Position numbers and translations under genes: made by a program | NCBI GenBank assembly: GCA_030693145.1 | Contig: JAUYBI010000015.1 | Location: 8,619 to 72,618, forward strand | Source: Candidatus Omnitrophota bacterium | GTDB taxonomy: Bacteria > Omnitrophota > Gorgyraeia > Gygaellales > Profunditerraquicolaceae | Direction of reading: 5' to 3' | Length of the DNA: 64,000 nucleotides | Notes under the pieces: model-generated | Database searches by the model: none | What the model saw: only the letters and a program-made list of their open reading frames with translations | Told to the model about the DNA's origin: nothing | Shown here: positions 9,208 to 42,630 of the stretch, in pieces | Layout of the letters: every line of letters starts with the position of its first letter | Position numbering within the stretch: the first letter of the stretch is position 1

Positions 9208-9734
9208 GAAAATTAAATAACAAGGAAAAAATATTAGCAGCTGCGATCGGGGCCCTGTTGATTTTGCTGGCGCTTAAGGTTTTTGTTTTGGGCCCGATTT
9301 ATGATAAGACGGGTATTTATTCCAGCGAGATTGAACAGGCCAAAGTAACGATCCGCAAATATACGGCCTTAGAGCATAACCGCATGGAGATCCTCAAGGC
9401 CCAAAAACAGATTGAAGGGTATTCCAGCCTCAAGGGCTCGGATGAAGATAAGTCCGCGATGGTGATGAGCAAACTGGAAGCCGAGGCCAGAAGGTCTAAG
9501 CTGCAGATATTGGATATGAACTCCACCGGGGTGACTAAGGTTAAAGGCGGGGTAACTCTTTACCGGGTTAATTTAAGTGCTGAGGGCCAGTTAAAAGATT
9601 TTCTGGATTTTATTTCCGGGATTGAGGGGGCAAATATCCTGTTGCAGGTGGAGAAGATTACTTTAGCGGTTAAGGGTGAAAATACCGGATTATTAAAAAT
9701 TGATGTGGTGATTTTAGGAGTCGCTTTTGCTTAA
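9204..9734 (+). CDS. GspM/PilO-like bitopic inner-membrane protein
   Basis: 176 aa. N-terminal TM helix followed by a periplasmic domain. Its start overlaps the upstream stop (ATGA). Operon position after the GspL-like gene. Confidence 0.4.
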   Translation: MRKLNNKEKILAAAIGALLILLALKVFVLGPIYDKTGIYSSEIEQAKVTIRKYTALEHNRMEILKAQKQIEGYSSLKGSDEDKSAMVMSKLEAEARRSKLQILDMNSTGVTKVKGGVTLYRVNLSAEGQLKDFLDFISGIEGANILLQVEKITLAVKGENTGLLKIDVVILGVAFA

Positions 9735-9859
9735 TAAGCAGGGGAGGTTGAAACCTCCCCTACAGCTGTTAATAATCAACTATGGAGGATACTTTTGCTT
9801 AATGAGTAGGGGAGGTTTAAACCTCCCCTACAGCTGTTGATAATCAACTAGGGAGGATA
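9724..9859. repeat. 68-bp tandem duplication, each unit holding a PalA copy (GCAGGGGAGGTTGAAACC.. and GTAGGGGAGGTTTAAACC..) plus a CAGCTGTT(A/G)ATAATCAACTA tail
   Basis: The two units, 9724-9791 and 9792-9859, differ at about 5 positions. The first unit includes the gspM-like stop codon. Confidence 0.8.
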
Positions 9860-9861
9860 CA

Positions 9862-10260
9862 ATGAAGCGAGGTTTTACTTTAATTGAGCTGATGCTCGTG
9901 GTTATTATTATCGGCGTTTTATCGGCGATGGTTGTGCCGCGGCTTGCCGGAAGGAGCGAGCAGGCGCGTATACAAGCGGCAAAAACGGATATTAATTCCA
10001 GTATCCCGCTGGCGCTTGACCTCTATGAAATGGATACGGGCCATTATCCGGAGCTGCTGGATTACCTCAGGATTAATTCGGGGTTAGGCGCGGAAAGCTG
10101 GCGCGGGCCATATTTGAAGAAAAAACCCATGGATCCCTGGAATAAGCCGTATAGCTATAAATCCCCGGGTGAACATAATCAGGATGGTTATGATCTTTTT
10201 TCTTCCGGCAGTGATGGGCAGCCGGGGACAACGGATGATATTGTAAACTGGGGTGAGTAA
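9862..10260 (+). CDS. gspG: Major pseudopilin, type II secretion GspG
   Basis: MKRGFTLIELMLVVIIIGVLSAMVVP prepilin cleavage/methylation N-terminus and the typical GspG C-terminus (GYDLFSSGSDGQPGT.DDIVNW). RBS gggaggat. Confidence 0.85.
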   Translation: MKRGFTLIELMLVVIIIGVLSAMVVPRLAGRSEQARIQAAKTDINSSIPLALDLYEMDTGHYPELLDYLRINSGLGAESWRGPYLKKKPMDPWNKPYSYKSPGEHNQDGYDLFSSGSDGQPGTTDDIVNWGE

Positions 10261-14283: not shown

Positions 14284-15543
14284 GTGATTAAACGCAGGGT
14301 AGTGATTACCGGCATTGGGGTAATTTCGCCTAATGGCATCGGTAAAAAGAATGCCTGGGAAGGTTTTGCCGGCGGAAAATCCGGGGTACGTTTAGTTGAT
14401 GGTTTTGATGTCTCAGTATTTAATACTAAAATTGCCGCGGAGGTGCGCGATTTTGATCCTTTTAAATTAGGCTTAAGCCATGAAGAAGCCATGCGCATGG
14501 ATCGCTATGTGCAATTTGGCGTAGCTGCCGGTAAAATGGCAGTGGAAGACAGTAAGTTGGACTTTTCTCAAGAAGATGTTCAGCGCATCGGCGTTTGTTT
14601 AGCTAATGCTATCTGCGGGACCAAATATATGGAAGAAGAGTTTGCTTTGGTTACTGACGACGGGAAAAAACCCATAGATCCGAGTTTAGTGCGGCCGGAT
14701 TTATATGATGCGGCAATGTTTAATACTCCGTCAATTGAAATCAGCGCGCGTTTCGGCTTAAAAGGAAGTTGTAATACTATTTCCACCGGATGCACCGCAG
14801 GCACGGATTCCTTAGGTTTTGGCCTGGAAAGTATTCAGGATGGGTCGTTGGATGTGATGATTTGCGGAGCAGCCGAAGCGCCGCTTACTCCGATTACCTT
14901 TGGCGCTTTTGACGTGGTAAATGTCTTATCAGTGCATAATGATGAGCCGCAAAAAGCATCGCGCCCCTTTGATAATAAAAGGGATGGGTTTGTTTTAGGA
15001 GAGGGGGCCGGGATACTGGTGCTGGAGGAATTAAATCACGCCTTAAAGCGGAATGCCCCGATTTATTGCGAGATTTTGGGTTTCGGCACCAGTTGTAATG
15101 CTTTTCATATGACGGATCTTCCTTCTGATGGACGGGCAATGGAGACCTGTATTGCCCTGGCCTTAAAAGATGCGCAGGTTAAACCCTCTGAAATTGATTA
15201 TATCAACGCGCATGGCTCAAGTACGCGGATGAATGATATTTTTGAAAGTAATGCTTATAAAGCGATTTTTGACGAAGCTGCCTATCAGCTGCCTATCAGT
15301 TCATTTAAATCTATGATCGGCCACCCTCTGGCTGCGGCTAATGCTATTGAGATGACGATTGCCGCGATGATTTTTGAGAAAAATATTCTTCCTCCGACGA
15401 TAAACCAAGAGGAAAAAGACCCGCAGTGTGACCTGTATTATATTCCCAATGAAGCGATACAGAAAAAAGTAAATATTATTTTAAAAACCAGCAGTGGTTT
15501 TTCAGGGATACACTCTTCGCTGGTTTTGAAACGATTTAAATAA
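14284..15543 (+). CDS. Beta-ketoacyl synthase (FabF/KS-alpha-like), catalytic Cys-His-His present
   Basis: VVITGIGVISPNG. Active-site ISTGCTAGTD. Conserved His residues at HGSSTRMND and SMIGHPLAAA. The track start (14248, TTG) lies inside the palindromic repeat. The GTG at 14284 gives MIKRRVVITG. Confidence 0.85.
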   Translation: MIKRRVVITGIGVISPNGIGKKNAWEGFAGGKSGVRLVDGFDVSVFNTKIAAEVRDFDPFKLGLSHEEAMRMDRYVQFGVAAGKMAVEDSKLDFSQEDVQRIGVCLANAICGTKYMEEEFALVTDDGKKPIDPSLVRPDLYDAAMFNTPSIEISARFGLKGSCNTISTGCTAGTDSLGFGLESIQDGSLDVMICGAAEAPLTPITFGAFDVVNVLSVHNDEPQKASRPFDNKRDGFVLGEGAGILVLEELNHALKRNAPIYCEILGFGTSCNAFHMTDLPSDGRAMETCIALALKDAQVKPSEIDYINAHGSSTRMNDIFESNAYKAIFDEAAYQLPISSFKSMIGHPLAAANAIEMTIAAMIFEKNILPPTINQEEKDPQCDLYYIPNEAIQKKVNIILKTSSGFSGIHSSLVLKRFK

Positions 15544-15611
15544 AGGGGACGGTTCTATTTTTTATAGAGCCTGTTTGATAAAAAAATAGAACCGTCCCCG
15601 GGATTTTAACT
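15543..15611. repeat. HpB hairpin with GGGATTTTAACT tail between the KS and CLF-like genes
   Basis: AAAGGGGACGGTTCTATTTTTT..AAAAAATAGAACCGTCCCC-GGGATTTT, ending at the ATG. Confidence 0.8.
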
Positions 15612-16841
15612 ATGAATAAAATTGCTATCACGGGTATCGGCGTAGTCAGCCCCTCAGGGATCGGCAAGCGGCAATTCTGGGCGAATATTAAAAGCGGACG
15701 CTCGTTCATTAAAAAGATTACGCGTTTTGATGCCAGCCTTTATCCTGCGCATATTGCCGGGCAAATTGATGACCTGGAAAAGTATAGCCATATCTCCGAG
15801 AGGCTGCTGAAGAAAATTGATGCTTTTTCACATATGGCGCTGGTGGCCGCAGAGCTGGCTTTGCAGGATGCCGGGATTGATATTAAGAATGAAGATCCGA
15901 ACCTGGTGGGTATCTTTTTAGGTAATGCTATTGGCGGCTGGCTTTACGCGGAGACAGAGTTAAGGGACCTGTATTTAGAGGGGCGCCAGGGTGTCTCACC
16001 TTACATGGCTAGCGCCTGGTTTCCGGCGGCACCTCAAGGCCAGGTTTCAATTTATTATGGGATTAAAGGTTTTAGCAAGACCGTAGTCAGCGACCGGGCC
16101 AGCTCCCTGATGGCGCTGGGCTATGCCCGGAAAGTTTTGGCTAAAAATAAACTAAACATGATTTTAGCCGGAGGGATGGAGGCGCCGGTTACTCCGTATG
16201 CTTTATTATGTTGTAATACCTATGGGGCGCTCTCTAAAAACAATGATCATCCGGCGGCAGCTTATCGTCCATTTGACCAGGAGCGCAGCGGTTTTGTGAT
16301 TGGCGAAGGCGCGGGGATTGTGGTCATGGAAAGTATTCAACGCGCCAGGGGCCGGGGCGCGAATATTTTAGGCTTAATTAGCGGCTATGGCACTTCTTGT
16401 GACGGGGTAAATAGAATTAATTGCGCTAGCGACGGGAAGGAACTGGCGCGGGCGATAAATATGGCGCTGGCGGATGCCCAAGTGGCTGCTGAAGAAATTG
16501 GTTATATCAGTTTAGACGGCTTGGCAGTGGAGCTTTGGGATAACTCCGAAATTAAAGCGCTAGAATTAGTTTTTGGGGAGAACTTAAAGAAAATTCCTGT
16601 AAGCTGCCCAAAATCTATGTTCGGGAATTTGCTGGGGGCTTCCGGTGTTTTAGATATGATTATCGCGCTTTTAACTATGGAGCATAGTTTAGTCCCTCCG
16701 ATATTGAATTTAGAGAAGCCGGCTTTAAACAGTTTAAATTATGTGGCTAAAGAGTCCAGGGAATATAAGGTAAGTAAATCTTTGATTATTTCACGCGGAA
16801 GAGGCGGGATTAATTCGGTTTTGGTTGTTGAGAAATTATAA
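15612..16841 (+). CDS. Ketosynthase-like partner lacking the catalytic triad (chain-length-factor / KS-beta-like)
   Basis: KS fold (IAITGIGVVSPSG). At the active-site position the sequence is VVSDRASSLMALG, with Arg in place of Cys. Neither conserved His is present (LDGLAVELWD, SMFGNLLGAS). Confidence 0.75.
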   Translation: MNKIAITGIGVVSPSGIGKRQFWANIKSGRSFIKKITRFDASLYPAHIAGQIDDLEKYSHISERLLKKIDAFSHMALVAAELALQDAGIDIKNEDPNLVGIFLGNAIGGWLYAETELRDLYLEGRQGVSPYMASAWFPAAPQGQVSIYYGIKGFSKTVVSDRASSLMALGYARKVLAKNKLNMILAGGMEAPVTPYALLCCNTYGALSKNNDHPAAAYRPFDQERSGFVIGEGAGIVVMESIQRARGRGANILGLISGYGTSCDGVNRINCASDGKELARAINMALADAQVAAEEIGYISLDGLAVELWDNSEIKALELVFGENLKKIPVSCPKSMFGNLLGASGVLDMIIALLTMEHSLVPPILNLEKPALNSLNYVAKESREYKVSKSLIISRGRGGINSVLVVEKL

Positions 16842-16886: not shown

Positions 16887-18347
16887 ATGAAAATACTATT
16901 TGTTATGCCGAAAGTCGGTGCTTGGGCAACGCATGGAACACATCGTTCTCCGAATCAGTTATACGCGCATTGGGCGGCTTATGCGCGCGAAAGAGGCTAT
17001 GAGGATGTTTCTGTCTTAGACGGTAAAGCAGATCAAATTCCGATGGACGCTCTGATTGAACAAGTAAAACTTAAAAATCCGGATATCGTGGTGATGGGGG
17101 AGCAGCTGCACGGTTATGGCGGATATGGAGTTCTGCGGCATTTTAAAGATGCGGCCCTGGGGATTAAAAAAGCGCTGCCGAGAACAAAAATAATTCTCGG
17201 TGGGTTATGGTATTCCGCAATGCCGGTGCCGACATTAGAGGAGAATCCCGCGGTTGATTTTGTGGTGATGGGGGAAGAAGAATCTTTCGGAGATTTGATT
17301 GAGGCCATCGATAAAAATAAGCCTTTTGGCGACGTGGGCGGAGTCACTTCCCGCGTTGCCGGGGAAATTGTCATGGGCCCCCATAAGCCGCTGATGGAAG
17401 ATTTAGACAAGCTTCCTCTGCCGGCCTATGATTTATTTCCGATGGATAAATATGTAGGCCACACCTATTGGAAACCATTTGTGGATATCGTTACTTCGCG
17501 GGGATGCCCTTCAGCGTGCACCTTTTGTTATGAATGGGATCAGTTTGACCCGCGTTCACCTTCAGATTTCTTGAAATGGCGGGCGAAGTCTCCGGAAAGA
17601 GTTATGGAGGAGCTGAATCTTTTGCATCGAAAGTACGGAGTTAAAGTCGTGGTTATCCAGGACGACAATTTTAATGTCGACCCTAAAAGAGTACAGAAGT
17701 TCTGTGAACTTAAAAAAGCATCGAACAATCCGATTAAGTGGGTATCTTTAGGCCGGGCTATTGATTGGGTTAATTGTGAATCCATCCTGCCCCTGATGAA
17801 GGAAAATGGTTTATTCATGGGTGTTTTCGGTATTGAGGTTACCACGCAATCAGAGCTCAAGCGCATCGCTAAAGGTATTACCATTGACCAGATTAAGAAA
17901 ACCATAGAGATCCTGCGCAAAAATGATATCGCGATTGTCGCCGATATCATGATGGGTTTTGATTATGACACCGAAGCGATTATCAAGCAGCGTTTTGAGT
18001 TTACGGATCAGGTGGATCCGGATATTCTTTGGGTGGGCTATGTTACTCCTGCCCCGAATTCGCCGATGTGGAGGATTGCTTTAAAGAAAAACTGGATTGA
18101 TCCTAAAAAAGTAGATTTTAGCCGGTGGGATTTCTTGCATCCGGTAATTCCTACGGACCATCTGTCTACGGAAGATCTCGGACGCCTGGGTTCCTGGTGT
18201 ATGCGTGAATTTTTTTCCAAGCCCGGGCGCATTAATAGAATTATGGAAAGTGATTTTGATCCATTAGCTAAGCTTTGCTTTCAGGACGTGATGGCCGGAG
18301 TTGGTAAATGGGAAGCAGCCGCAACCAAGGGCGAAGTGCAGATATAG
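16887..18347 (+). CDS. B12-binding-domain radical SAM enzyme (class B radical SAM)
   Basis: N-terminal cobalamin-binding-like domain. Radical SAM core with a CPSACTFC (CxxxCxxC) cluster motif. 486 aa. Confidence 0.8.
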   Translation: MKILFVMPKVGAWATHGTHRSPNQLYAHWAAYARERGYEDVSVLDGKADQIPMDALIEQVKLKNPDIVVMGEQLHGYGGYGVLRHFKDAALGIKKALPRTKIILGGLWYSAMPVPTLEENPAVDFVVMGEEESFGDLIEAIDKNKPFGDVGGVTSRVAGEIVMGPHKPLMEDLDKLPLPAYDLFPMDKYVGHTYWKPFVDIVTSRGCPSACTFCYEWDQFDPRSPSDFLKWRAKSPERVMEELNLLHRKYGVKVVVIQDDNFNVDPKRVQKFCELKKASNNPIKWVSLGRAIDWVNCESILPLMKENGLFMGVFGIEVTTQSELKRIAKGITIDQIKKTIEILRKNDIAIVADIMMGFDYDTEAIIKQRFEFTDQVDPDILWVGYVTPAPNSPMWRIALKKNWIDPKKVDFSRWDFLHPVIPTDHLSTEDLGRLGSWCMREFFSKPGRINRIMESDFDPLAKLCFQDVMAGVGKWEAAATKGEVQI

Positions 18348-18352
18348 AATTA

Positions 18353-18430
18353 AATCAAGGGGACGGTTCTATTTTTCCGTCGCCCAACTGGTTTGAAAAA
18401 CAGAACCGTCCCCATGTTTTAAAACGGAGG
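18353..18430. repeat. HpB hairpin plus the conserved ATGTTTTAAAACGGAGG RBS module upstream of the ACP gene
   Basis: AATCAAGGGGACGGTTCTATTTTTCCGTCGC...CAGAACCGTCCCC-ATGTTTTAAAACGGAGGATAAATG. Confidence 0.8.
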
Positions 18431-19541: not shown

Positions 19542-19548
19542 AATTAAA

Positions 19549-19626
19549 AATCAAGGGGACGGTTCTGTTTTTCCGTCGCTTAATCTAATTGAAAAATAGA
19601 ACCGTCCCCATGTTTTAAAACGGAGG
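19549..19626. repeat. HpB hairpin plus the ATGTTTTAAAACGGAGG module upstream of the SRPBCC gene
   Basis: About 85% identical to the 18353 copy, including the loop TTTTTCCGTCGC. Confidence 0.8.
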
Positions 19627-22025: not shown

Positions 22026-22445
22026 ATGAATAATCAGGATATTAAGAATTTAAAGAAGCGTTATTTTATCTGGCTCTATAAAGCCGCCAAAGAAACCTTT
22101 GATAAATACGAGCGTAAGTTTACGCAAGTGGATATTGATAAGGATATCCTGGAAGAGATGGAGAAAGAGCTTTTAGGCTCCTATCTTCCTCATGAAAAAG
22201 ACGCCCTGCAAATGCAGATCAACGATTTTCAAAAATATATCGAGAATAAAGAAAAGTCTTGTTCAGAATTCAGGGATCAGCATAAAAAGATCAATCCGGA
22301 TTTTATTTTCTCAGAGATAAAACTGAATGCTATTGAGAAAGTAATTGTTAAGGGGTTAGGCAAAAGAGGCTTAGAGGAAATAAAATCCCTTTATGAAAAA
22401 GAAATGACTGAACGCATCTTAAAGAATACGGAGCTTTCCCGGTAA
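22026..22445 (+). CDS. Hypothetical helical protein
   Basis: 139-aa ORF inside the operon. Lys/Glu-rich with no recognisable motif. Confidence 0.4.
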   Translation: MNNQDIKNLKKRYFIWLYKAAKETFDKYERKFTQVDIDKDILEEMEKELLGSYLPHEKDALQMQINDFQKYIENKEKSCSEFRDQHKKINPDFIFSEIKLNAIEKVIVKGLGKRGLEEIKSLYEKEMTERILKNTELSR

Positions 22446-23356
22446 TGTTAATTGACGCGCATAGCCATTGGCTGCCGGAAGAAATAATTACTAATGCCCA
22501 TTTTTTTCATAAAGGATGGGGTGAGATTGAGGTGCAGCTTAAGGTTATGGATGAGGCAGGAATTGACCGGGCAGTCTTAAGTTATCCCACAACAGACGCG
22601 CATTTAAAGTTAGGCAGTATCAGCCAAGTAGCGCATATTTATAATGATAATGTTGCCAAGATTTTAAAAGCTTATCCGGAAAGATTTATCGGTGCGGCGG
22701 TTTTACCGGTAGATAATTCTTATGATATGCTGGAAGAGCTAAAGCGGGCAATCAATGAGTTAGGTTTTAAGGCAATTTCCCTTGCCTCAAGTTATAACGG
22801 TATATATTTGGATGACAAGATGTTTTTACCTATATATAAAGAAGCACAAGAAAAGGATATCCCGATCTTTGTGCATGCGCAAATTGTGAACCCGATAGGT
22901 TTTGAGCGGGTTAAGGATCCTCTGCTTACCCCGGTAGTGGAATATGTTTTTGATACTACGATTTCAATCGGCAAGCTTTTAATGTCGGATATTCTACGGC
23001 AGTATCCTAAGGTAAAATTTATTTTCGCCCATTTTGGCGGGGCAATCTGCTATCTAAAGCAGCGCTTTGACGCCACTTATCAGATGCTGCGGGAGATGAA
23101 CTTTGTTAAAGACTTACAGGGGCTTCCTTCAGATTATTTTAAGAATATCTACGTCGATACCAGCGGCGATACGACTAAGGCGAATTTCCTGCTTGCTCTT
23201 GAACTCATGGGCCCAGAACATATTTTGTGGGGCTCTGACTGGCCAGCTAAAAAAGATATGGCCAGTGGTATTAAAGCTGTCAATGATTTGGATATATCTG
23301 GAGAGGATAAACAAAATATCTTGGGTAGTAATTTAGAGAAGATATTCGCTCTTTAG
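22445..23356 (+). CDS. Amidohydrolase-2 family protein (ACMSD/decarboxylase/hydratase-like TIM-barrel metalloenzyme)
   Basis: MLIDAHSHWLPEE N-terminal metal-binding motif typical of Amidohydro_2. The start overlaps the upstream stop (TAATG). Confidence 0.65.
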   Translation: MLIDAHSHWLPEEIITNAHFFHKGWGEIEVQLKVMDEAGIDRAVLSYPTTDAHLKLGSISQVAHIYNDNVAKILKAYPERFIGAAVLPVDNSYDMLEELKRAINELGFKAISLASSYNGIYLDDKMFLPIYKEAQEKDIPIFVHAQIVNPIGFERVKDPLLTPVVEYVFDTTISIGKLLMSDILRQYPKVKFIFAHFGGAICYLKQRFDATYQMLREMNFVKDLQGLPSDYFKNIYVDTSGDTTKANFLLALELMGPEHILWGSDWPAKKDMASGIKAVNDLDISGEDKQNILGSNLEKIFAL

Positions 23357-23462
23357 CAATTTTTGCGGGTCCCCGCCACTAAATCGTTGGCGGGCAGGCT
23401 GTCTTGGGTATTTTCTAGCGCTGACGCGCGTCGAAAACACCCAAGCCACCCGCAAAATAGAC
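23357..23462. repeat. GC-rich palindromic element, family D (TTTTTGCGGGT..CTTGGGTATTTTC..GAAAACACCCAAG..ACCCGCAAAA) with an internal 26-bp hairpin insert. Left boundary of the AT-rich islet
   Basis: Near-reverse-complement of the 28745 element. About 65% GC in a ~42% GC background. Confidence 0.7.
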
Positions 23463-23528
23463 AAATTAATAGACTCTCAGAGTTAGTGAAAATAGAAACG
23501 GTCCCATTATTTTCTCAAGGAGGGGGCG

Positions 23529-24191
23529 ATGGAAAAAGAAACATTAGCGCTGATTCAGGTAATATCAGAGAATTCATCGTTCAAAGAATCTATTCTAAAA
23601 ACATTATTAGTAGCAATTTTAAGTGGTACAGCAGTATATTATGTTCCTAGATTGTTCAAGTTGATTAAACACCGCAGTAAACCGATTCTAACTTATCATT
23701 TTAATGGAGATACTTATTTAGAGTTAGATAAAATAAGACATTCTTTTGGGAAGAAAACGGTGGATAAGGGTGCGTCTAATGGTAAAGCGTGGGAACATAC
23801 AACGGATCAGATAGATGGAGGAGCAACTACCTGTTATGGGCCATACACCAAAGAGATACCTTTTCGAGGGAAATATAAAGCAAGATTTCGAATAAAACTC
23901 TGCGGAATAAAAGACAATAATTCCCATATTATAACTTTAGATGTTGCTTATGGGAAGTTAAGTGCAGATGAAACTAAGATGCAATTAGGGTTGCTTAAAA
24001 CCGAGAGACACTTGAGAACTGCAGATTTTATTGATGGTAAATATAAAGATTTTGATGTCGAATTCGAATACGACGGAGAATCATTGGTAGAATTTAGATG
24101 TTCAGTGCTTAGTCCTTTTAATTTTACAAATAGAGTTAGCCGAATATTTTTTGATAATGTAAAAGTATTTTTGGTATCAGAATTAATTTAG
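23529..24191 (+). CDS. Hypothetical single-TM protein, AT-rich, function unknown
   Basis: 220 aa. N-terminal TM helix (LLVAILSGTAVYYV) and a soluble domain with no recognisable motif. Flanked by degenerate inverted half-copies of the GGACGGTTCT hairpin family. RBS aaggaggg. Confidence 0.5.
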   Translation: MEKETLALIQVISENSSFKESILKTLLVAILSGTAVYYVPRLFKLIKHRSKPILTYHFNGDTYLELDKIRHSFGKKTVDKGASNGKAWEHTTDQIDGGATTCYGPYTKEIPFRGKYKARFRIKLCGIKDNNSHIITLDVAYGKLSADETKMQLGLLKTERHLRTADFIDGKYKDFDVEFEYDGESLVEFRCSVLSPFNFTNRVSRIFFDNVKVFLVSELI

Positions 24192-24205
24192 TTTCTGTAA
24201 TAAAA

Positions 24206-24856
24206 GTGACCGTTTCTATTTTTTTCAAGGAGATTTTAAAAGAAATGACCAAATATGAAAAATGCGATCTTATAATTGCTGCTGTAGCTGCTTTTTTTAC
24301 AACTACGGCTATAATCTGGGTTTTATTTAAAGAAACAATACTGGCTCGCTGGAGAGCGCCAAAATTACAAAGTCTTATTAATATGGATATGCCTTATGTA
24401 ACAAAACAAGGGAGAACTTATTATTATCATTTAGGGATTAAGAATATTGGTAGGGCGACTGCTCAAAATTGTCGTGGTTATGTCGACAGAATTTATGAAT
24501 ATAATAATGGACAATATGAAAGAATAAAGAATTTTATGCCTATGCCGTTATATTGGGCTAGAGAAGAGAAGTCAGCCACATTCATTGGGCCAGACCAGGA
24601 GAAATTCCTGGATTTGGGTACTATTGACACAGATTGTTCATATGCTGTAGGTAAGCGCCCATTTGTATTATGGTTTAGAGAATATAGTGATACCAGCCGG
24701 CTTTTCCTGGGTAGATATAAGATTAGGATTATTTTATATTCCGAAAATACAGAAAGTTTACCTGTAGAATTATATATTAGTTGGAGTGGTCAGGCTAAAG
24801 AAGAATATATGGATATGCTGAAAGAATTAATAATAAGTAAAGAATTAATAAAATAA
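24206..24856 (+). CDS. Hypothetical single-TM protein, AT-rich, function unknown
   Basis: 216 aa. N-terminal TM helix (LIIAAVAAFFTTTAIIWVLF) and a soluble domain rich in Tyr/Arg. No recognisable motif. Confidence 0.5.
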   Translation: MTVSIFFKEILKEMTKYEKCDLIIAAVAAFFTTTAIIWVLFKETILARWRAPKLQSLINMDMPYVTKQGRTYYYHLGIKNIGRATAQNCRGYVDRIYEYNNGQYERIKNFMPMPLYWAREEKSATFIGPDQEKFLDLGTIDTDCSYAVGKRPFVLWFREYSDTSRLFLGRYKIRIILYSENTESLPVELYISWSGQAKEEYMDMLKELIISKELIK

Positions 24857-24865
24857 GGTAGGGAT

Positions 24866-24955
24866 ATATTTTAGCGGGTGACACGGAGGCGGGTCCCCTG
24901 CCGCGCGCAACGCAAGTGAGCACGGTAGGGTGCCGCAGTGGCAGGACGCGCGTAA
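24866..24955. repeat. GC-rich structured element (TTTTAGCGGGTG...CGCGCG) directly upstream of crcB
   Basis: About 70% GC with multiple complementary GC-rich blocks. It does not fit the fluoride riboswitch consensus by eye. Confidence 0.55.
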
Positions 24956-24960
24956 GTATT

Positions 24961-25335
24961 ATGATGAAATTATTGAACTTGATTATTGGGGGAGCGGTAG
25001 GGACAGTTGCCAGGTATTTTTTAGCCGGCGTTGTTTACAGGTTTATGGGTGCTGGGTTCCCTTATGGTACATTAATTGTAAATATCAGCGGCTGTTTTAT
25101 CCTGGGTTTTTTAGCTGCTTTATCGGATAAGAAATTTATTCTTGGGCCGGATGCGCGCCTATTGTTGATGATTGGTTTTTGCGGGGCTTTTACCACATTC
25201 TCAACCTTGATCTTTGAGTCTGATAGCTTAGTTAGAAATGGCCAGGCAATCCGTGCTTTTACTAATATCTTTGCCAGCGTAATTTTAGGCTTTATATTAT
25301 TTAGAGTAGGCAGTTTATTAGGAGAGATAATATGA
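24961..25335 (+). CDS. crcB: Fluoride ion channel CrcB/FluC
   Basis: 124 aa from the ATG at 24961 (MMKLLNLIIGGAVGTVARY..., GFCGAFTTFSTL). Four TM helices typical of the Fluc family. The upstream part of the track ORF translates a GC-rich structured element. Confidence 0.8.
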   Translation: MMKLLNLIIGGAVGTVARYFLAGVVYRFMGAGFPYGTLIVNISGCFILGFLAALSDKKFILGPDARLLLMIGFCGAFTTFSTLIFESDSLVRNGQAIRAFTNIFASVILGFILFRVGSLLGEII

Positions 25336-25661
25336 AAATTCCCGCGGATGGAAAACTTTTGCGTATTTTTATTGGTGAAGCAGACAAATGGAATGGCAAG
25401 CCACTTTATGAAGAGATTGTGTTTTTAGCCAAGAAAAACGGTTTAGCTGGAGCAACGGCAATTAAAGGGTTTATGGGGTTTGGCTGTAAAAGCCATATGC
25501 ATACGGCTAATTTACTGCGGCTTTCCGAGGACCTGCCGGTGGTTATTGAAATCGTGGATAGCGAAGAAAAAATCAATCAATTTATTCCCCAACTGGATAG
25601 CATGGTTAAGGAAGGATTGGTTACTCTTGAAAAGGCAAACGTGATTATGTACCGGGCTTAA
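25332..25661 (+). CDS. DUF190-family small protein (commonly paired with crcB)
   Basis: 109 aa. LLRIFIGEADKWNGKPLYE ... GATAIKGFMGFG resembles DUF190. Start overlaps the crcB stop (ATGA). Confidence 0.6.
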   Translation: MKIPADGKLLRIFIGEADKWNGKPLYEEIVFLAKKNGLAGATAIKGFMGFGCKSHMHTANLLRLSEDLPVVIEIVDSEEKINQFIPQLDSMVKEGLVTLEKANVIMYRA

Positions 25662-25744
25662 TTTAAGAAAAAACGAGCGGGAAGATATGAGCTTGACAAT
25701 GTTCTCAGATATGATACAATTGTTCTCAAAGGGAGAACAGTAAG

Positions 25745-26323
25745 ATGCTCAGTGCGTTAATATCGTCTGGCTCGCGAAGAAAAATCCTGACTCAATTTTT
25801 GTCTCATCCGGATGAGAAATACTATGTCCGGCAGTTAGCGGTTATTCTTGGAGTATCAGTGGGAACAATTCATCGTGAGCTTATTCGGCTGCAGGGCAGC
25901 GGTATATTAAATTCGGATAACGTAGGTAATTTAAGGTTTTTCCGCGTAAATAAAGCGTCGCCGGTTTTTAAAGAATTAAAACAGATTATCTTTAAAACCG
26001 AGGGTGTCCAGGGCAGGCTTAAAGCAAAGTTAAAAGACCTAAAAGGGCTTAAAACCAGCTTTATTTATGGATCATTTGCCAAGAGAGAAGAAAACGCGCA
26101 TAGCGATATTGATCTTTTTCTCTTAGGTGATATTTCCGAAGATGAGTTAATTCAAAGAATAAGTGCTTTGGAGGGAGAGTTTGACAGGGAAATAAATTTT
26201 ACAATTTATACGGTTTCTGATTTTAAGAAAGAGATGAAAAGAGGTGGCTCTTTTCTAAGAGATGTAATTAAGAACCCGAAGATTTTTTTGGTTGGTAGTA
26301 TGGATGTGTTGAATGGATTATAA
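25745..26323 (+). CDS. Winged-HTH plus minimal nucleotidyltransferase (MNT) protein
   Basis: N-terminal ArsR-like HTH (YVRQLAVILGVSVGTIHRELIRL). NTase motif GSFAKREENAHSDIDLFLLGD (GS..DxD). Confidence 0.65.
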   Translation: MLSALISSGSRRKILTQFLSHPDEKYYVRQLAVILGVSVGTIHRELIRLQGSGILNSDNVGNLRFFRVNKASPVFKELKQIIFKTEGVQGRLKAKLKDLKGLKTSFIYGSFAKREENAHSDIDLFLLGDISEDELIQRISALEGEFDREINFTIYTVSDFKKEMKRGGSFLRDVIKNPKIFLVGSMDVLNGL

Positions 26324-26780
26324 TAAATTTATTGAAGATTATTTATCCCGTGGTTTAATTAAAAAACAGCCTGTTGGTTTTGATCAGATAAATAGTTTTA
26401 TAACACAATCAAAGCAGGAATTAAAAGATTGTAATAATATATTGGATATAAGCGCGAAAATCGCCTATTCATCGGCGTATACGGCAATGCTTTACGCGGC
26501 GCGGGCGTTGATGTTACTTGCCGGGTATCGGCCGGCGGGAGTTAATCAGCATAAGACAGTAATTGAATTTGTTGGCGTATGCGCGGGGGATGAATATAGA
26601 GATTTGATTAAGAAGTTTGACGTGATGCGTAAGAAAAGAAATTTACTTATGTATGAACCTTGGGAGGTTAATGTGTCTCCTGCCGATTCTAGAAATGCGG
26701 TAAATACTGCCGCGGAGTTTATCGAGTTTATCATAGTTAAGATTAAGAAAGATAATCCGCAGGATGAATTTGAGTTTTAG
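26313..26780 (+). CDS. HEPN-domain protein (partner of the upstream MNT)
   Basis: 155 aa, overlapping the MNT gene by 11 nt. HEPN-like helical region AKIAYSSAYTAMLYAARALMLLAGYRP. Confidence 0.6.
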   Translation: MDYNKFIEDYLSRGLIKKQPVGFDQINSFITQSKQELKDCNNILDISAKIAYSSAYTAMLYAARALMLLAGYRPAGVNQHKTVIEFVGVCAGDEYRDLIKKFDVMRKKRNLLMYEPWEVNVSPADSRNAVNTAAEFIEFIIVKIKKDNPQDEFEF

Positions 26781-26892
26781 CTTTTCGTAAATAAAAGTTT
26801 ATTTAGAAGTAATGGGGTCAGAATTATTTGTTGACGGAAAAATGAGAGTGGGTAGTAGGTACTAGAGATAATTAACAGAAAGGTAAAATAAG

Positions 26893-27058
26893 ATGCAAAT
26901 GCAAAAAACGTTCATTTAACTGGAAAAGATCTGACGGAGATGGTGCAGCTTCGGAGGCAGGATGTGGGCAAGTACGCGATTGTGCCTGGGCCGCGCGACC
27001 GTTTGGATGTATTAATGAAAAAAATTGAGAATCCGGTGCGTAATTTTTCATTTATGAA
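26893..27058 (+). pseudogene. Degenerate 5' fragment (about 56 codons, frameshifted) duplicating the start of the phosphorylase gene at 27992
   Basis: About 90% nucleotide identity to 27992-28157 (agatgcaaatgcaaaa...taatttttcatttatg). A 1-nt deletion near codon 5 breaks the frame. It ends at a half copy of the GGGGACGGTTCT hairpin. Confidence 0.6.
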
Positions 27059-27078
27059 ATAAAGGGGACGGTTCTATT

Positions 27079-27165
27079 TAGCGGGTGGCGAGGCTTGGAC
27101 TCGAGCAGCATCTCAAAAATTCGAGCGGGCACGGTCCCGCCAAGACTCTTGGCGGGGAGCGAGAA
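27079..27165. repeat. GC-rich structured element (TTTAGCGGGTGGCGAGGCTTGG...CCAAGACTCTTGGCGGGGAGCG) upstream of the Phd/Doc module
   Basis: Complementary arms are read directly. It directly follows a half HpB repeat. Confidence 0.55.
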
Positions 27166-27199
27166 TTAGATAAAATATTTCGTTTGACTGAAGATATTT

Positions 27200-27262
27200 T
27201 TATGTTAACCTAATGGTGTATGGTTAACATATGTTAACTAAGATAACATTGGTTAACAAGAG
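27200..27262. promoter_or_regulatory. Four GTTAAC-centred half-sites forming two inverted repeats, a candidate operator for the HTH antitoxin, directly upstream of the Phd/Doc module
   Basis: GTTAAC at 27204, 27223, 27233 and 27252. The central pair forms the perfect 16-bp palindrome GTTAACATATGTTAAC. Confidence 0.5.
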
Positions 27263-27267
27263 GAGAT

Positions 27268-27534
27268 ATGATGCAAAGTAAAGAGAATGAATATGTTACG
27301 ATACCTGAATTGGCAAAGATACTTGGTTTAAGCAGGATCGCTGTTTTTAAAAAGGTAAAGAAAGGCGAGATTAAGGCCATTAAGATAGGAAAAACCTACG
27401 GAATTTCCAGAAAGCACGTAGAAAGCCTATTAGGGAAGGTTTTGGGCGAAGATGAGAAGAAAGAAATTGACCTGGCGGTAAAAAGAACTGTTAGCGAATA
27501 CGGCCAAACATTGAAGCTTTTGGGTAAAGATTAG
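27268..27534 (+). CDS. HTH DNA-binding protein (excisionase/MerR-like HTH), putative antitoxin partner of Doc
   Basis: 88 aa. VTIPELAKILGLSRIAVFKKVKKGEIKAIKIG helix-turn-helix. Its stop overlaps the doc start. Confidence 0.55.
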   Translation: MMQSKENEYVTIPELAKILGLSRIAVFKKVKKGEIKAIKIGKTYGISRKHVESLLGKVLGEDEKKEIDLAVKRTVSEYGQTLKLLGKD

Positions 27535-27956
27535 TGAAGAAACTCACGGTTAAAGAAGTTGAATATATTGCTTTTAAGTTAGCGCAGGAGTTGTTATCTT
27601 TTAAGGAGCCGATACCCGATTTTGCTACGCGTTATCCCAATATTTTGGAGAGTTGTCTGGCGACGCCATTCCAATCTTTTGGCGGGAAGTCAGGTTACCC
27701 CTCATTTATTGATAAGGCGAGCATTCTGTTTTATCTATTGATTAAAAATCACCCTTTTCAAAATGGTAATAAGAGAGTTGCCATGACAACGCTGTTGGTA
27801 TTTTTGCATAAAAATAAAAAATGGCTTAAAGCTGACACACAGGAATTCTATAATTTTACAATGTGGATAGCCCAAAGCTCGGCAAAATATAAAGAAGAAA
27901 CAATAAAAGCAATTCAGAAGTTTTTAAAAGCAAGCATAGTTGAGTTAATAACGTAA
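27534..27956 (+). CDS. doc: Doc (death-on-curing) toxin, Fic fold
   Basis: 140 aa. HPFQNGNKRVAMTTLLVFL carries the Fic/Doc motif HxFx(D/N)GNKR. Confidence 0.8.
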   Translation: MKKLTVKEVEYIAFKLAQELLSFKEPIPDFATRYPNILESCLATPFQSFGGKSGYPSFIDKASILFYLLIKNHPFQNGNKRVAMTTLLVFLHKNKKWLKADTQEFYNFTMWIAQSSAKYKEETIKAIQKFLKASIVELIT

Positions 27957-27991
27957 GCGAATTAATTAACTATTAAAAGGGAGAATAAAAG

Positions 27992-28741
27992 ATGCAGATG
28001 CAGAAGGATGTTCATTTAACCGGAAGAGATTTAACGGAGATGGTGCAGCTTCGGAGGCAGGATGTGGGTAAATACGCGATTGTGCCCGGGCCGCGCGACC
28101 GGCTGGATGTATTAATGAAGAAAATAGAAAATCCTGTACGTAATTTTTCATTTATGGAATATACCATGTATACCGGTACGTATGAAGGGATCAAGGTTAC
28201 CGGAATTAACGGCGGAAGATTTTCCACGGATACTTCGATTACTACGGAGGTAATGTGTAATGCCGGAATACAAAATATTATCCGCATCGGCACAGCCGGC
28301 TCGCTTGATGAAGATATTAAGGTCGGCGATTTATTTGTGGTAGATGAGGTTATCCGCGGAGATGGGGTAACTCCTTATTATGTAGATAAGGATTTTAAAA
28401 CAGTCAGCGATAAAAAAATCTCCGACCTTCTTTTTGAGATTGCCAAAGGTATGGGGTTAAATGTGCATCGCGGCAAGGCCTGGACCACGGATGCGCTTTT
28501 GCGCGAAACCCGCGAAATTGTCGAAGCCAAGCGTAAAGAAGGAGCAAGGGCAGTGGATATGGTATCTTCAACCCTATTAACTATTTGTCAGACATATAAT
28601 ATTAAGGCGGGATCGATATTAGCCGTAAGTGACAACGTGATTACCGGCGAGATGGGTTTTATGAACCCACTTTATTATCTGGCAGAAAGTAACTTAATCA
28701 AAATCGCGTTGGAGTTAGTGAAGAAATTGGAAGGAAAATAG
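27992..28741 (+). CDS. PNP/UDP-family nucleoside phosphorylase (uridine-phosphorylase-like; possible 5'-deoxyadenosine/MTA phosphorylase)
   Basis: 249 aa. DVHLTGRDL...YAIVPGPRDRLD aligns with the uridine phosphorylase N-terminus (DVFHLGLTK..LAIVPGDPDRV). Also RIGTAGSL. Confidence 0.7.
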   Translation: MQMQKDVHLTGRDLTEMVQLRRQDVGKYAIVPGPRDRLDVLMKKIENPVRNFSFMEYTMYTGTYEGIKVTGINGGRFSTDTSITTEVMCNAGIQNIIRIGTAGSLDEDIKVGDLFVVDEVIRGDGVTPYYVDKDFKTVSDKKISDLLFEIAKGMGLNVHRGKAWTTDALLRETREIVEAKRKEGARAVDMVSSTLLTICQTYNIKAGSILAVSDNVITGEMGFMNPLYYLAESNLIKIALELVKKLEGK

Positions 28742-28744
28742 AAT

Positions 28745-28818
28745 TTTTGCGGGTGGCTTGGGTGTTTTCGTAGCGCGTCAGCGCAAGAAAATACCCAAGA
28801 CAGGACCCGCAAAAAAAG
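28745..28818. repeat. GC-rich palindromic element, family D (TTTTTGCGGGTGGCTTGGGTGTTTTCG-TAGCGCGTCAGCGC-AAGAAAATACCCAAGACAGGACCCGCAAAAA), right boundary of the islet
   Basis: Imperfect 27-bp arms read directly. Lies between the phosphorylase and the MtnA-like gene. Confidence 0.7.
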
Positions 28819-28825
28819 GACGGAC

Positions 28826-29740
28826 ATGAAATTCTCTCCATTATTTTGGCCGATACAATTAAAAGGTAACGTTATTTATATTTTGGATGAGACCCAACTT
28901 CCTCAAAAGCTCGTCTACATAAAGGCGAAGAACTATCTTCAGGCCTGCGCGGCAATTAAACAGATGAAAACCCGCGCCGTGGGGCAGGTGCTCTTGGTAA
29001 TGTATACTTTTCTTTTAAGCAAGCGGCAGAACAAAAATTTAGCCAAAGTTGCCGCAGCGATTAATGCCACGCGGCCGACCTTGTCTTTTAAATTTTTAAC
29101 GGAGATGGTTTTAGGCTGGGAAAAAAGCGGGATGCCATTTGAGAAAAGTATTTTGGGTTTCCTGGAGATGCTTAAAGCCAAGCGTATCGAGCAGGCCGGA
29201 GAGATGGCTAAATTGCTTAAAGACGGCGAAGTGGTCCTTACGCACTGTAATATCAGCGGCCTGATGCCTTTAATTGCCCAGTTTGCTTTAGAGCAGGGCA
29301 AAAAAATAAGTTTCTATGTTACGGAGACGCGGCCATATTTGCAAGGGTCGCGCCTTACTGCCTGGGAAATTATGCGCGCGGGTTTTGAGGTAACCATCAT
29401 TACCGATAATATGGTGGCGTATTTATTATCTTTAGGTAAAGTAACTAAAGTTATCGTCGGAGCAGACCACTTAACCTTAAACGGGGACATCGCCAATAAA
29501 ATCGGCACTTATCAGATGGCGATAGTTGCCAGGTATTTTAAGATCCCTTTTTATGTAATTTGTCCGCCGGCATCGAAATTAAAAAGCGGAAAAGAAATTA
29601 AAATTGAAATCCGTCCGGGCAATGAATTAAAGATTTATCAAGGGCTGCATTTAGCGCCCAAAGAGGTTAAAGCGTATTATCCGGCTTTTGATGTTACGCC
29701 GAATAAGCTTATTACTAAACACATTTATTTAGGGGTGTAA
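28826..29740 (+). CDS. eIF-2B-family sugar-phosphate isomerase (MtnA-like methylthioribose-1-P / 5-deoxyribose-1-P isomerase)
   Basis: 304 aa. N-terminal ILDETQLPQK. C-terminal VGADHLTLNGDIANKIGTYQMAIVARYFKIPFYVICP matches the MtnA/eIF2B C-terminal signature. Confidence 0.7.
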   Translation: MKFSPLFWPIQLKGNVIYILDETQLPQKLVYIKAKNYLQACAAIKQMKTRAVGQVLLVMYTFLLSKRQNKNLAKVAAAINATRPTLSFKFLTEMVLGWEKSGMPFEKSILGFLEMLKAKRIEQAGEMAKLLKDGEVVLTHCNISGLMPLIAQFALEQGKKISFYVTETRPYLQGSRLTAWEIMRAGFEVTIITDNMVAYLLSLGKVTKVIVGADHLTLNGDIANKIGTYQMAIVARYFKIPFYVICPPASKLKSGKEIKIEIRPGNELKIYQGLHLAPKEVKAYYPAFDVTPNKLITKHIYLGV

Positions 29741-33777: not shown

Positions 33778-33809
33778 ACAGTAGGGGAGGTTTAAACCTC
33801 CCCTACTGT
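33778..33809. repeat. PalA G-variant, extended palindrome ACAGTAGGGGAGGTTTAAACCTCCCCTACTGT
   Basis: Read directly. Lies between the CoA-ligase gene and rlmN. Confidence 0.85.
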
Positions 33810-33822
33810 TGAAAGGCAGGTT

Positions 33823-39955: not shown

Positions 39956-39960
39956 AACCC

Positions 39961-40030
39961 TAGAATAAAGGGACCGTTTCTATTTTTTAAAAGAAAAAAT
40001 AGAAACGGTCCCTTTATTCTGAAACGGTCC
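39961..40030. terminator. Bidirectional intrinsic-terminator-like perfect hairpin between convergent leuS and the response-regulator gene
   Basis: ataaagggaccgtttctatttttt-aaaag-aaaaaatagaaacggtccctttat forms a 24-bp perfect stem flanked by T/A runs. It is a variant of the GGGACNGTTCT hairpin family. Confidence 0.5.
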
Positions 40031-42417: not shown

Positions 42418-42520
42418 GTAGGGGAGGTTTAAACCTCCCCTACTATTAAAGGCTCGCTTTAAACCTCCCCTACTATTAAAGGCTCGCTTTAAACCTCCCC
42501 TACTATTAAAGGCTCGCTTT
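42418..42520. repeat. PalA G-variant followed by a 3x tandem array of a 30-bp unit (TTTAAACCTCCCCTACTATTAAAGGCTCGC) made from the PalA right half plus flank
   Basis: The three units, 42428-42457, 42458-42487 and 42488-42517, are identical. Confidence 0.85.
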
Positions 42521-42524
42521 AGAA

Positions 42525-42573: not shown

Positions 42574-42630
42574 TATTTGCTTGATTTTACCTTTGACAAA
42601 GCCGTCCGGCTATGGTAAATTCATAATATT

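Follow-up and report, generated by a model that had tools for sequence, protein, structure and literature searches.

The window analysed here is a stretch of 64,000 nucleotides from a Candidatus Omnitrophota bacterium (contig JAUYBI010000015.1), and the unit under study occupies its positions 23357-28818. This block of 5.4 kb, as first drawn in a preliminary description made from the letters alone, was taken to be an AT-rich accessory islet bounded by mirror copies of a GC-rich palindromic element. We annotated its proteins using Pfam, NCBIfam and PADLOC searches and compared it with related loci (designated by L numbers), considering both the interval between an amidohydrolase gene (Amidohydro_2) and a nucleoside phosphorylase gene (PNP), and the GC-rich hairpins, named D, E1 and E2, that are found in and next to the islet. 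The locus comprises the following features:

22445-23356, plus strand: Amidohydro_2 gene (PF04909, E 2.7e-32), last gene of a biosynthetic cluster and conserved left flank of the variable interval; upstream of PNP in 75/75 loci having both flanks.
23360-23457, minus strand: D(L), left hairpin copy, beginning 3 nt past the amidohydrolase stop codon, GTCC-first on the plus strand, with a nested mini-hairpin at ~23370-23396.
23490-23512, plus strand: solo arm AAAATAGAAACGGTCCC of the GGGACCGTTTCT hairpin family, common to L010, whose homology stops directly after it.
23529-24191, plus strand: unk1, predicted to be membrane-anchored, with a long N-terminal helix then a beta jelly-roll; GC content at third codon positions (GC3) 0.24.
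24245-24856, plus strand: unk2, 203 aa; GC3 0.26 for the open reading frame (ORF) counted from GTG at 24206.
24866-24958, plus strand: E1, by motif matches a degenerate member of the hairpin superfamily, 5' TTTTAGCGGGTGAC ... 3' GGCAGGACGCGCGTAAG.
24964-25661, plus strand: crcB (24964-25335) and DUF190 (25332-25661) genes, assigned by Pfam and NCBIfam.
25693-26780, plus strand: MNT/HEPN cassette, with a promoter-like site (25693-25720), a gene for a nucleotidyltransferase with a helix-turn-helix (HTH) domain (25745-26323) and a HEPN gene (26313-26780).
26894-27062, plus strand: relic of the 5' part of PNP, 56 codons, frameshifted by a 1-nt deletion; direct repeat D10.
27063-27170, plus strand: solo arm GGGGACGGTTCTATTT fused to E2, a 3'-truncated long copy of the superfamily that lacks the ...GACAGGACCCGCTAAA end.
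27180-27956, plus strand: HTH_17-Doc cassette, with a GTTAAC-rich putative operator/promoter, an antitoxin-like HTH gene (27268-27534) and a Fic/Doc gene (27534-27956).
27992-28741, plus strand: PNP_UDP_1 nucleoside phosphorylase gene (Pfam), a core gene and the true right flank of the interval.
28745-28818, plus strand: D(R), right hairpin copy, beginning 3 nt past the PNP stop codon, GGC-first, within the PNP|MtnA junction.
28826-29740, plus strand: MtnA-like (IF-2B family) gene, a core gene that normally overlaps or abuts PNP (NCBIfam and synteny).

This annotation recovers the gene content given by the preliminary description, i.e. crcB, DUF190, nucleotidyltransferase/HEPN, Fic/Doc and two proteins without Pfam match, together with the two additional GC-rich elements reported within the block (24866-24958 and 27078-27170). 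The extent of the block has to be corrected, as 23357-28818 takes in a core gene, the 249-aa PNP_UDP_1 gene, which was missing from the earlier gene list. From the composition profile and per-gene analysis, the GC content over 23357-27991 is 0.377 vs 0.427 for the window, and this interval is the lowest-GC stretch of 4635 bp in the 64 kb, in line with the AT-richness first noticed. The dip sits in the cargo genes and not in PNP, which displays a normal GC content of 0.435. The figure of about one third GC put forward for the whole block applies only to unk1 and unk2 (GC 0.33, GC3 0.24-0.26, z about -5); values of 0.36-0.38 are found for the MNT/HEPN and HTH/Doc genes, and crcB-DUF190, at 0.41-0.42, does not deviate from the window. 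Their extreme AT-richness marks unk1 and unk2 as the most foreign part of the islet.

Relatives were the contexts of close PNP homologues together with 80 genome loci retrieved with the PNP protein and mapped using the window proteins; gap statistics refer to the 75 loci having both flanks, window included. PNP shares 83-98% amino acid identity in 80/80 genome loci and 85-94% in the protein collection, in which every organism name given for the close homologues is Candidatus Omnitrophota or Omnitrophica. Exact look-ups of two window proteins recovered Amidohydro_2 on a 973-bp contig only and no record of MtnA, so that neither gave a second assembly of this strain. The order unk138, Amidohydro_2, gap, PNP, MtnA-like, class II aldolase-like is kept throughout and the gap alone is variable, extending from 5 to 4635 bp over the 75 Omnitrophota loci, with the window as the largest. 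In 23/75 loci, the gap is at most 223 bp and harbors no ORF of 60 aa or more; the synteny check suggested at first, namely whether amidohydrolase and MtnA are adjacent elsewhere, thus finds the amidohydrolase near the next conserved gene, which is PNP and not MtnA. The commonest occupant of the gap is crcB-DUF190 (21/75 loci including the window). The MNT/HEPN cassette is the sole cargo in L013 and L015 (93-97% amino acid identity to the window), the HTH-Doc cassette is present in L010, L022 and L002 (86-97% for L010/L022), and an unk1 homologue occupies the same interval in L042. Further cargo found elsewhere includes a response-regulator receiver, Mrr_cat, SLFN (Schlafen) AlbA_2, AbiJ, MazG, a Shedu SduA_C fragment and GIY-YIG, and at least 10 cargo types were counted in total.

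Segment-wise nucleotide comparison of the window points to different relatives in turn. The left flank is nearest to L009 (86%), D(L) plus the next solo arm are 94% identical to L010, unk1 matches L042 only (74%), crcB-DUF190 shares 87% nucleotide identity with L009, and blastn aligns L013 and L015 (89%) in one uninterrupted match that covers the MNT gene and HEPN and extends into the PNP relic. The window is colinear with L010 at about 90-94% over the whole stretch that starts at the HTH-Doc promoter and takes in PNP and the MtnA-like gene (91% nucleotide identity for the HTH-Doc cassette). The accessory and mosaic nature first attributed to the block is therefore supported both by the gap polymorphism among relatives and by these segment-wise matches, and the Amidohydro_2-PNP gap is best explained as a recombination hotspot in this Omnitrophota lineage. 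The window is its largest known allele, with 4.6 kb and 8 genes, and is pieced together from modules that relatives carry one at a time.

No recombinase was found among the cargo genes by Pfam, the called genes on either side of the hotspot in three relatives have no integrase-type domain recorded, no tRNA target lies at the islet (the nearest tRNAs are 7 kb off), and no flanking direct repeats are present, the PNP relic being the only direct repeat at the islet. As no integrase or transposase was found beside the interval, homologous recombination in the conserved flanks is the most likely route of exchange. We propose that small self-contained modules, mostly of toxin-antitoxin (TA) or defence type with their own promoters, plus crcB-DUF190, would gather and be exchanged at this hotspot, the incoming DNA recombining homologously in the conserved flanks and now and then being joined illegitimately.

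Chromosomal integration hotspots and defence islands between core genes are known from comparative genomics, and the islet is an ordinary kind of object, a textbook small hotspot. It shares with them conserved flanks, variable small cargo rich in TA, abortive-infection, restriction and Shedu-type genes, a deviating composition and many empty sites in relatives. It differs by its tiny scale (0-4.6 kb), by the lack of tRNA, integrase and direct repeats, and by its site in the middle of a conserved gene string, which leads from a biosynthetic cluster to an MtnA-like operon. It thus offers a clean example, from an uncultivated phylum, of TA/defence cassettes shuffled between conserved genes without a dedicated integrase, with a recombination scar preserved.

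The second component of the locus is the set of hairpins. The inverted pair (I4) has arms of 59 nt at 23399-23457 and 28745-28803 that are 95% complementary, and the D core is present in two copies only in the window. The near reverse-complement pair reported at first is thus real as regards its arms, while the two copies are not 75-mers: D(L) measures 98 nt, including a nested mini-hairpin of 27 nt, and D(R) 74 nt. Each folds as a long imperfect hairpin (-43 to -56 kcal/mol, z -5.6 to -8), and neither contains an intrinsic terminator in either direction, the T-run and the A-run prolonging the stem. The 10-mer TTDGCGGGTG occurs 4 times in the window vs 0.42 expected, all at D(L), E1, E2 and D(R). 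The termini of D, E1 and E2 are common to all, with a T-run, GCGGGTG(G/A)C ... (G/A)CAGGACCCGC and an A-run, around cores that differ and for total lengths of 49 to about 300 nt. D, E1 and E2 are one non-coding hairpin superfamily.

Its architecture is, from the outside inward, three variable paired bases, an invariant foot of 6 bp (GCGGGT/ACCCGC), an internal loop, asymmetric and likewise invariant, with GG or GA facing ACAGG or GCAGG, then a stem of at least 11 bp of free, covarying sequence and a variable tip; the foot consensus CGGGTGRC...GRCAGGACCCG is invariant while the stem varies and covaries. We quantified the covariation on 151 distinct copies taken from all retrieved sequence, with shuffled partners as comparison. 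Outside the foot, the next three bases pair in 84% vs 47% after shuffling, with the fourth and fifth flanking bases unpaired, and inner stem positions 2-10 are paired in 86% vs 53%, with four to six pair types at most positions. A K-turn reading of the internal loop was rejected, as the tandem G.A pairs that a K-turn needs are absent.

Such hairpins are dispersed among Omnitrophota. A tolerant scan of 1.28 Mb of Omnitrophota loci returned 37 copies with a near-invariant foot and an end pair that covaries from G-C to A-T. A slightly broader scan gave 40 copies, of which 31 have co-directional genes on their two sides and 3 have convergent ones; the copies mostly begin 5-11 nt past the upstream stop codon, and their orientation relative to transcription is split 19 vs 12. 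They are found in AT-rich spacers a few bases past stop codons, in either orientation and at many intergenic sites. The PNP|MtnA junction, which in the window spans 28742-28825, could be compared in 85 loci: the two genes overlap or are separated by at most 6 bp in 57, and 28 carry inserts. D is found there in plus orientation in the window, L019 and L028 and in minus orientation in L012, L014, L016, L017 and L034, of which L016, L017 and L034 have an empty hotspot. L015, L018 and L035 carry E1-type copies with canonical termini at this junction, and L003 and L037 carry such copies at other sites; a related hairpin variant is present at it in L013, and the other inserts are small ORFs or palindromes of at least four unrelated kinds. 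In the upstream cluster, many relatives have D-type copies past the radical-SAM gene and the cyclase gene as well. Presence or absence varies at three orthologous junctions, with several unrelated palindromes found at the same sites.

Over 102 nt, D(L) matches L010 91-192, which occupies the same site, with 100% identity, whereas the adjoining 84 coding nt are only 72% identical, and D(R) is 100% identical over 78 nt (28745-28822) to L019 858-935 at the same junction. L010 has the counterpart of D(L) and a different palindrome at the right-hand site. Since each D copy has its own counterpart at the same site in another genome, the pair does not represent the ends of one unit. Overall, we consider it likely, and hold with good confidence, that two things are superimposed at this locus, an allele of the Amidohydro_2-PNP hotspot and a resident, dispersed hairpin superfamily whose copies are not the ends of the islet.

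The foot is also found beyond Omnitrophota. A metagenome scan using the foot plus a free core of 35-65 nt detected it in at least 120 stretches; among the matches listed, these are mostly soil contigs of 65-75% GC and nearly all form strong hairpins. Three foot-bearing contigs encode proteins whose clusters at 90% identity include NCBI-assigned Solirubrobacterales proteins. The hairpins gave no match in Rfam (4227 families), searched at E<=5 for the islet, at E<=1 for 20 metagenome loci and at gathering score for 8 relatives, the searches returning tRNAs and a spurious miRNA match only; they thus matched no known ribozyme or motif and no attC-like model. Literature searches on the foot sequence found no relevant paper, with unrelated primer matches only, and those on Omnitrophota or Solirubrobacterales repeats found none.

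What the hairpins are can be approached from the repeat families they resemble. By their distribution they appear to behave like non-autonomous mobile DNA of the type of repetitive extragenic palindromes (REP) or of miniature transposable elements with inverted repeats (MITE). Being placed inside operons, they would be transcribed into very stable RNA hairpins, with a probable effect on how stable the adjoining cistrons are or how they are translated. ERIC/IRU, Correia/NEMIS, RUP and BOX are MITE-like imperfect palindromes. The present hairpins resemble them as non-coding units of 60-300 nt with complementary termini, intergenic in either orientation, co-transcribed in operons, with nested or truncated copies, sometimes in frame within genes, and with insertion polymorphism at orthologous sites; they differ in that no target-site duplication or parent insertion sequence was identified and that the foot is common to Omnitrophota and Solirubrobacterales. 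With REP, BIME and REPIN sequences they share GC-rich palindromes of several families per genome, located mostly just downstream of coding regions between co-directional genes and occasionally intragenic, plausibly transcribed as RNA hairpins, with orthologous sites variably occupied. They depart from REPs by the absence of an unpaired GTAG/CGTC tag, the termini being a T-run and GCGGGT ... ACCCGC and an A-run, by their length (49 to about 300 nt vs 20-40), by a conserved part that consists of a paired foot and an asymmetric loop, and by the absence of any RAYT association in our searches. REPs are described with placement downstream of ORFs, intragenic copies, multiple families per genome and GTAG or CGTC tags (Di Nocera et al. 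2013, PMC3733652).

Several observations weigh against a resident mobile repeat superimposed on a hotspot. No transposase, target-site duplication or autonomous partner of the hairpins was found in the loci retrieved, so that we infer their mobility from site polymorphism. Copies at orthologous sites are 100% identical vs 72-90% in the neighbouring coding DNA, and this excess of conservation over the genes suggests homogenisation, recent exchange or strong constraint; it could reflect a selected function instead of selfish spreading. Of the copies in the high-GC set (L089-L208), 57 have GGAG or GAGG no more than 12 nt from the GCCACCCGC end vs 5 with it at the other end, and this bias of orientation relative to a Shine-Dalgarno-like motif points to a role at the RNA level in high-GC hosts. 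All four superfamily members of the window lie in or next to the islet, and a local association with hotspot DNA is possible. Lastly, the window apparently comes from a metagenome-assembled genome (MAG), and the junctions of the PNP relic are those of the assembled sequence alone.

As regards mobility, no recurrent neighbouring gene was seen among the 120 metagenome loci listed, where ORF clustering gave housekeeping synteny only, and no long element with hairpin ends was found in the loci retrieved, the search for an unpaired half-foot being too noisy in high-GC DNA. At the three orthologous junctions there is no consistent duplication, and the AT-rich flanks often prolong the palindrome rather than forming direct repeats. 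A search for Y1 transposases, for which an E. coli YafM sequence served only as a probe and whose matches were confirmed by Pfam, found only two among the retrieved loci, at L016 3340-4127 and L017 4357-5107 (Y1_Tnp; IS200/RAYT-like, with HUH plus Tyr). As a RAYT partner for D these were rejected, since they are flanked by GTAG-type REPs (GTAGACCTACG) and not by D. Bracketed by these GTAGACCTACG REPs, they form a REPtron-like arrangement that is inserted, in these two relatives, between the acyl carrier protein (ACP) and cyclase genes belonging to the conserved biosynthetic cluster.

These points bear on the alternative of a primarily functional role, in which the hairpins would act in cis as RNA or single-stranded DNA modules, selected where they lie and not selfish, and in which the invariant foot would be bound by a conserved host protein; they could, for example, stabilise mRNA between cistrons, serve as processing sites, or modulate translation from a position between a stop codon and the next ribosome-binding site (RBS). 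Besides the Shine-Dalgarno bias, which stems from contigs of Solirubrobacterales type, the excess of conservation over flanking genes and the lack of an associated transposase, it is favoured by a foot and internal loop that are invariant across two phyla while everything else covaries, and by a tight placement mostly 5-11 nt past stop codons. It accounts poorly for the occurrence of both orientations at the same orthologous junction, for the lack of an insert there in most relatives (57 loci at 6 bp or less), for the substitution of unrelated palindromes at the same sites, for truncated and nested copies (E2 in the window, L017) and for two copies inside ORFs, features which mobile repeats typically show. 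We therefore regard it as rather unlikely as a replacement for the mobile-repeat view, with which it need not be mutually exclusive, as REPs show.

In the mobile-repeat view as in the functional one, a conserved foot implies a conserved partner, whether a protein, the ribosome or the RNA-decay machinery. A module of 17-20 nt is conserved from Omnitrophota at 43% GC to soil Actinomycetota at 70% GC, the rest being free to vary. With a transposase as partner, the hairpins would represent a new widespread REP-like system, and with a host factor, a new regulatory module between cistrons; in both cases, the foot provides a searchable signature for intergenic annotation in MAGs. The hairpin family is modestly novel, and the unusual feature is the foot shared across phyla, since 97.4% of cellular MITEs are specific within genus boundaries according to a census (Nadal-Molero et al. 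2024, PMC11602168). More tentatively, and as a possibility that we would rather leave on the doubtful side, the foot might define an undescribed cross-phylum class of structured elements without Rfam counterpart, either a third REP-like super-family beside GTAG and CGTC, with a recognition protein of its own, or a portable cis-acting RNA module placed between a stop codon and the following RBS.

The apical part of the high-GC hairpins often contains a small internal loop, with GA opposite GCA or GA on either strand. On a contig of 72% GC, L172, two identical copies of 75 nt (8205-8279 and 9616-9690) lie in opposite orientation at equivalent positions inside adjacent paralogous glycosyltransferase-like ORFs, and would be in-frame intragenic insertions. 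One exact foot match lies on a high-GC viral contig (L209 3712-3782; IMGVR_UViG_2933023708_000001), within a minus-strand ORF (2084-3952) whose product is DNA polymerase I-like by eye; this match may be due to chance.

The recombination history of the hotspot allele is most visible in the PNP relic. What the preliminary description called a pseudogene fragment is indeed one, and more specifically the first 56 codons of the PNP gene located 1.1 kb downstream, frameshifted and 90% identical to it (direct repeat D10, 152 nt at 90%, spacing 1100). Multiple alignment shows that 27 nt past the HEPN stop codon are common to L013/L015, followed by an insert specific to the window and then by the relic. 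Since the relic is continuous with HEPN as in L013/L015, it is, as read from the sequence, the probable scar of an older HEPN-PNP junction of the kind found in these two relatives. Homology of the relic to PNP stops at ...ATGRAATA, after codon 56, and in L022 and L025 the bases before the E2-type elements are AATAAAG and GAATAAG. A segment made of the repeat arm plus E2, HTH-Doc and PNP would thus have been joined downstream of an older MNT-HEPN-PNP arrangement, after PNP codon 56, and the bases at the junction suggest a join at a short AATA microhomology. Full-length relatives of E2 occur at about 9090-9275 in L025, 8320-8490 in L002 and 8863-9160 in L022, ending with GACAGGACCCGCTAAA in L025 and with a degenerate form in L002 and L022.

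Alternatively, the 5' duplication of PNP, and hence part of the mosaic, could be an assembly chimera of co-existing strains with different hotspot alleles. The source is apparently a MAG, unk1 having a counterpart of 100% identity among the proteins of an Omnitrophota MAG at NCBI, encoded on a contig of 84.5 kb, and the hotspot is highly polymorphic among related genomes, both of which make room for such an artefact; yet the relic differs from the full PNP by 10% plus a frameshift and ends at a non-homologous junction followed by unique sequence, and a switch between strains in shared sequence would be expected to give one hybrid PNP, not a truncated copy, 1 kb and a full copy. We hold a chimera to be very unlikely.

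More improbable still is the view, close to that of the preliminary description, that the 5.4-kb block is one acquired unit whose inverted D ends mobilise or delimit the cargo. The D copies are inverted and 95% complementary, all four related elements of the window lie within the block, and the cargo is AT-rich, as such a unit would have it; the right copy, however, lies beyond a core gene, PNP, which separates it from the cargo. D is present at the same two junctions in genomes with no or different cargo, including some with an empty hotspot, and in many relatives at non-island positions such as those after the radical-SAM and cyclase genes and at PNP|MtnA, the very outcome that the preliminary description had named as refuting its reading; L010 has D(L) and not D(R); the orientation of D at the right junction varies between genomes; and by eye the outer bases form no direct repeat, with AGCAA on the left vs GGACG / GGACGGAC... 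on the right. The islet is therefore not delimited by these elements as had been proposed. Least probable of the explanations weighed is an integron-like cassette array, for which the small modules with or without promoter, TA pairs included, and hairpins whose conserved foot, asymmetric unpaired spacer and variable tip superficially recall the architecture of attC sites are outweighed by the lack of RYYYAAC/GTTRRRY boxes in the sequence, by mixed orientations, by hairpins that do not follow each cassette (MNT/HEPN of L013 has none on either side) and that occur between core genes without cargo, and by the absence of an integrase-type domain on record for called genes in the flanks of three relatives and of any Rfam match.

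Turning to the cargo proteins, unk1 and unk2 gave no match in Pfam, NCBIfam or PADLOC. The unk1 family comprises 36 sequences, from Omnitrophota and one Margulisiibacteriota, without Pfam domain. An AlphaFold (AF2) model of unk1 (pLDDT 87.7) has a long N-terminal helix followed by a beta jelly-roll, for which Foldseek returned matches to CBM22, CBM4 and CBM16 (E about 1e-6, about 10% identity); unk1 is thus predicted to be a membrane-anchored protein with a jelly-roll resembling carbohydrate-binding modules. unk2 has a hydrophobic N-terminal stretch that by eye looks like a membrane anchor, and belongs to a diffuse unnamed family of 277 representative clusters at E<=1e-3, of similar size and with no named domain.

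The MNT/HEPN cassette (PF18765/PF01909 plus PF05168), the ORFs of which overlap at 26313-26323, matches the PADLOC candidate system PDC-M05A/B (E 1e-55 and 2e-17), and a promoter scan finds a near-consensus promoter with 11/12 matches at 25693-25720. By its adjacent, translationally overlapped nucleotidyltransferase and HEPN genes and its PDC-M05 match, it would resemble a type VII MntA/HepT system; it differs by the ArsR-like HTH at the N-terminus of its nucleotidyltransferase, whose score of 23 bits is far under the MntA equivalog cut-off of 60. The pair first named Phd/Doc retains its Doc (PF02661, E 1e-12; TIGR01550, 50.5 bits vs a cut-off of 38.65) and loses its Phd, as no Phd/YefM-family antitoxin was found beside Doc by Pfam or NCBIfam and the upstream gene belongs to the HTH_17/excisionase family. 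The likeness to a type II Phd/Doc system therefore lies in the predicted Fic-fold toxin, and the difference in the partner; PADLOC assigns the pair to PDC-S23, and its GTTAAC-rich operator region is common to L002, L010 and L022.

Upstream of crcB, no fluoride riboswitch was matched in Rfam at E<=5 in the window (24866-24963), nor at gathering score in 8 relatives (L002, L004, L009, L012, L024, L025, L033 and L044). E1 was likewise rejected as a crcB leader, having no Rfam match at E<=5 and intact relatives at PNP|MtnA and elsewhere. In L004, crcB begins 10 bp past the amidohydrolase stop codon.

The hotspot splits a long conserved gene string, which covers ~12000-33800 in the window and is also seen in L002, L003 and L006. 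Upstream it consists of ketosynthases, B12-radical SAM, ACP, cyclase, polyketide-cyclase-like, MFS and SDR genes, CBM_11 in relatives, a gene for a 138-aa protein and the amidohydrolase, and downstream of PNP, MtnA-like, a class II aldolase-SCP2 fusion, aldehyde dehydrogenase, AMP-ligase, RlmN-like and GDSL genes. The 'methionine-salvage' genes beside the hotspot score under equivalog cut-offs, and may serve the neighbouring pathway instead.

Other palindromes share the sites of the D-type hairpins. At least six unrelated palindrome families occur at PNP|MtnA, including D, E1, GGGGTCAGAATTATTTT, the CGTC-tagged CGTCATCCTGAGG, CCTGCCTGCCGGCAGGCAGG and others, and two loci have small membrane ORFs instead; GGGGTCAGAATTATTTT fits the GGGGWSAS motif reported for TIRYT-associated repeats. 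In several relatives, a palindrome of ~180 nt (CTCGGGATATTGT...GCCGAAAAATTTCTAAT...) lies directly past the amidohydrolase stop codon, which is the D(L) site of the window (L002 7513-7700, L022 8166-8340, L025 8174-8345), and the CTCGGGATATTGT palindrome is also found at the cyclase junction of L037. Nesting recurs among these repeats: CCCGCCA...TGGCGGG is found in D(L) (23370-23396), in E2 (27136-27156) and alone in L003 (about 9900-9925 and 18015-18035), while a D hairpin of L017 (10758-10845) has CCTGCCTGCCGGCAGGCAGG at its tip and L071 has CCTGCCTGCCGGCAGGCAGG alone, with nesting also listed for the PNP|MtnA junction of L013. At 5971-5981 of the window, the foot is matched by chance within coding sequence, and no element is present there.

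The commonest repeat of the window is a perfect 26-nt palindrome, GTAGGGGAGGTTTAAACCTCCCCTAC (variant GTAGGGTGGG), GTAG-tagged like classical REPs, with 25 occurrences in the 64 kb (e.g. 2374-2404, 9806-9836 and 33781-33811) and overlapping partial copies at a 30-nt spacing over 42418-42508; repeats of CGTC type occur in L010. A second hairpin family, AAGGGGACGGTTCT...AGAACCGTCCCC, which in many cases leads directly into an RBS and start codon, is found at 49-145, 15535-15616, 18349-18430, 19545-19626, 39960-40018, 42519-42577, 52756-52807 and 61932-62019. In the window it occupies the radical-SAM|ACP junction and the one between the cyclase and the next gene, where relatives have D-type hairpins, and solo arms of this family lie at 23490-23512, 24207-24222 and 27063-27079.

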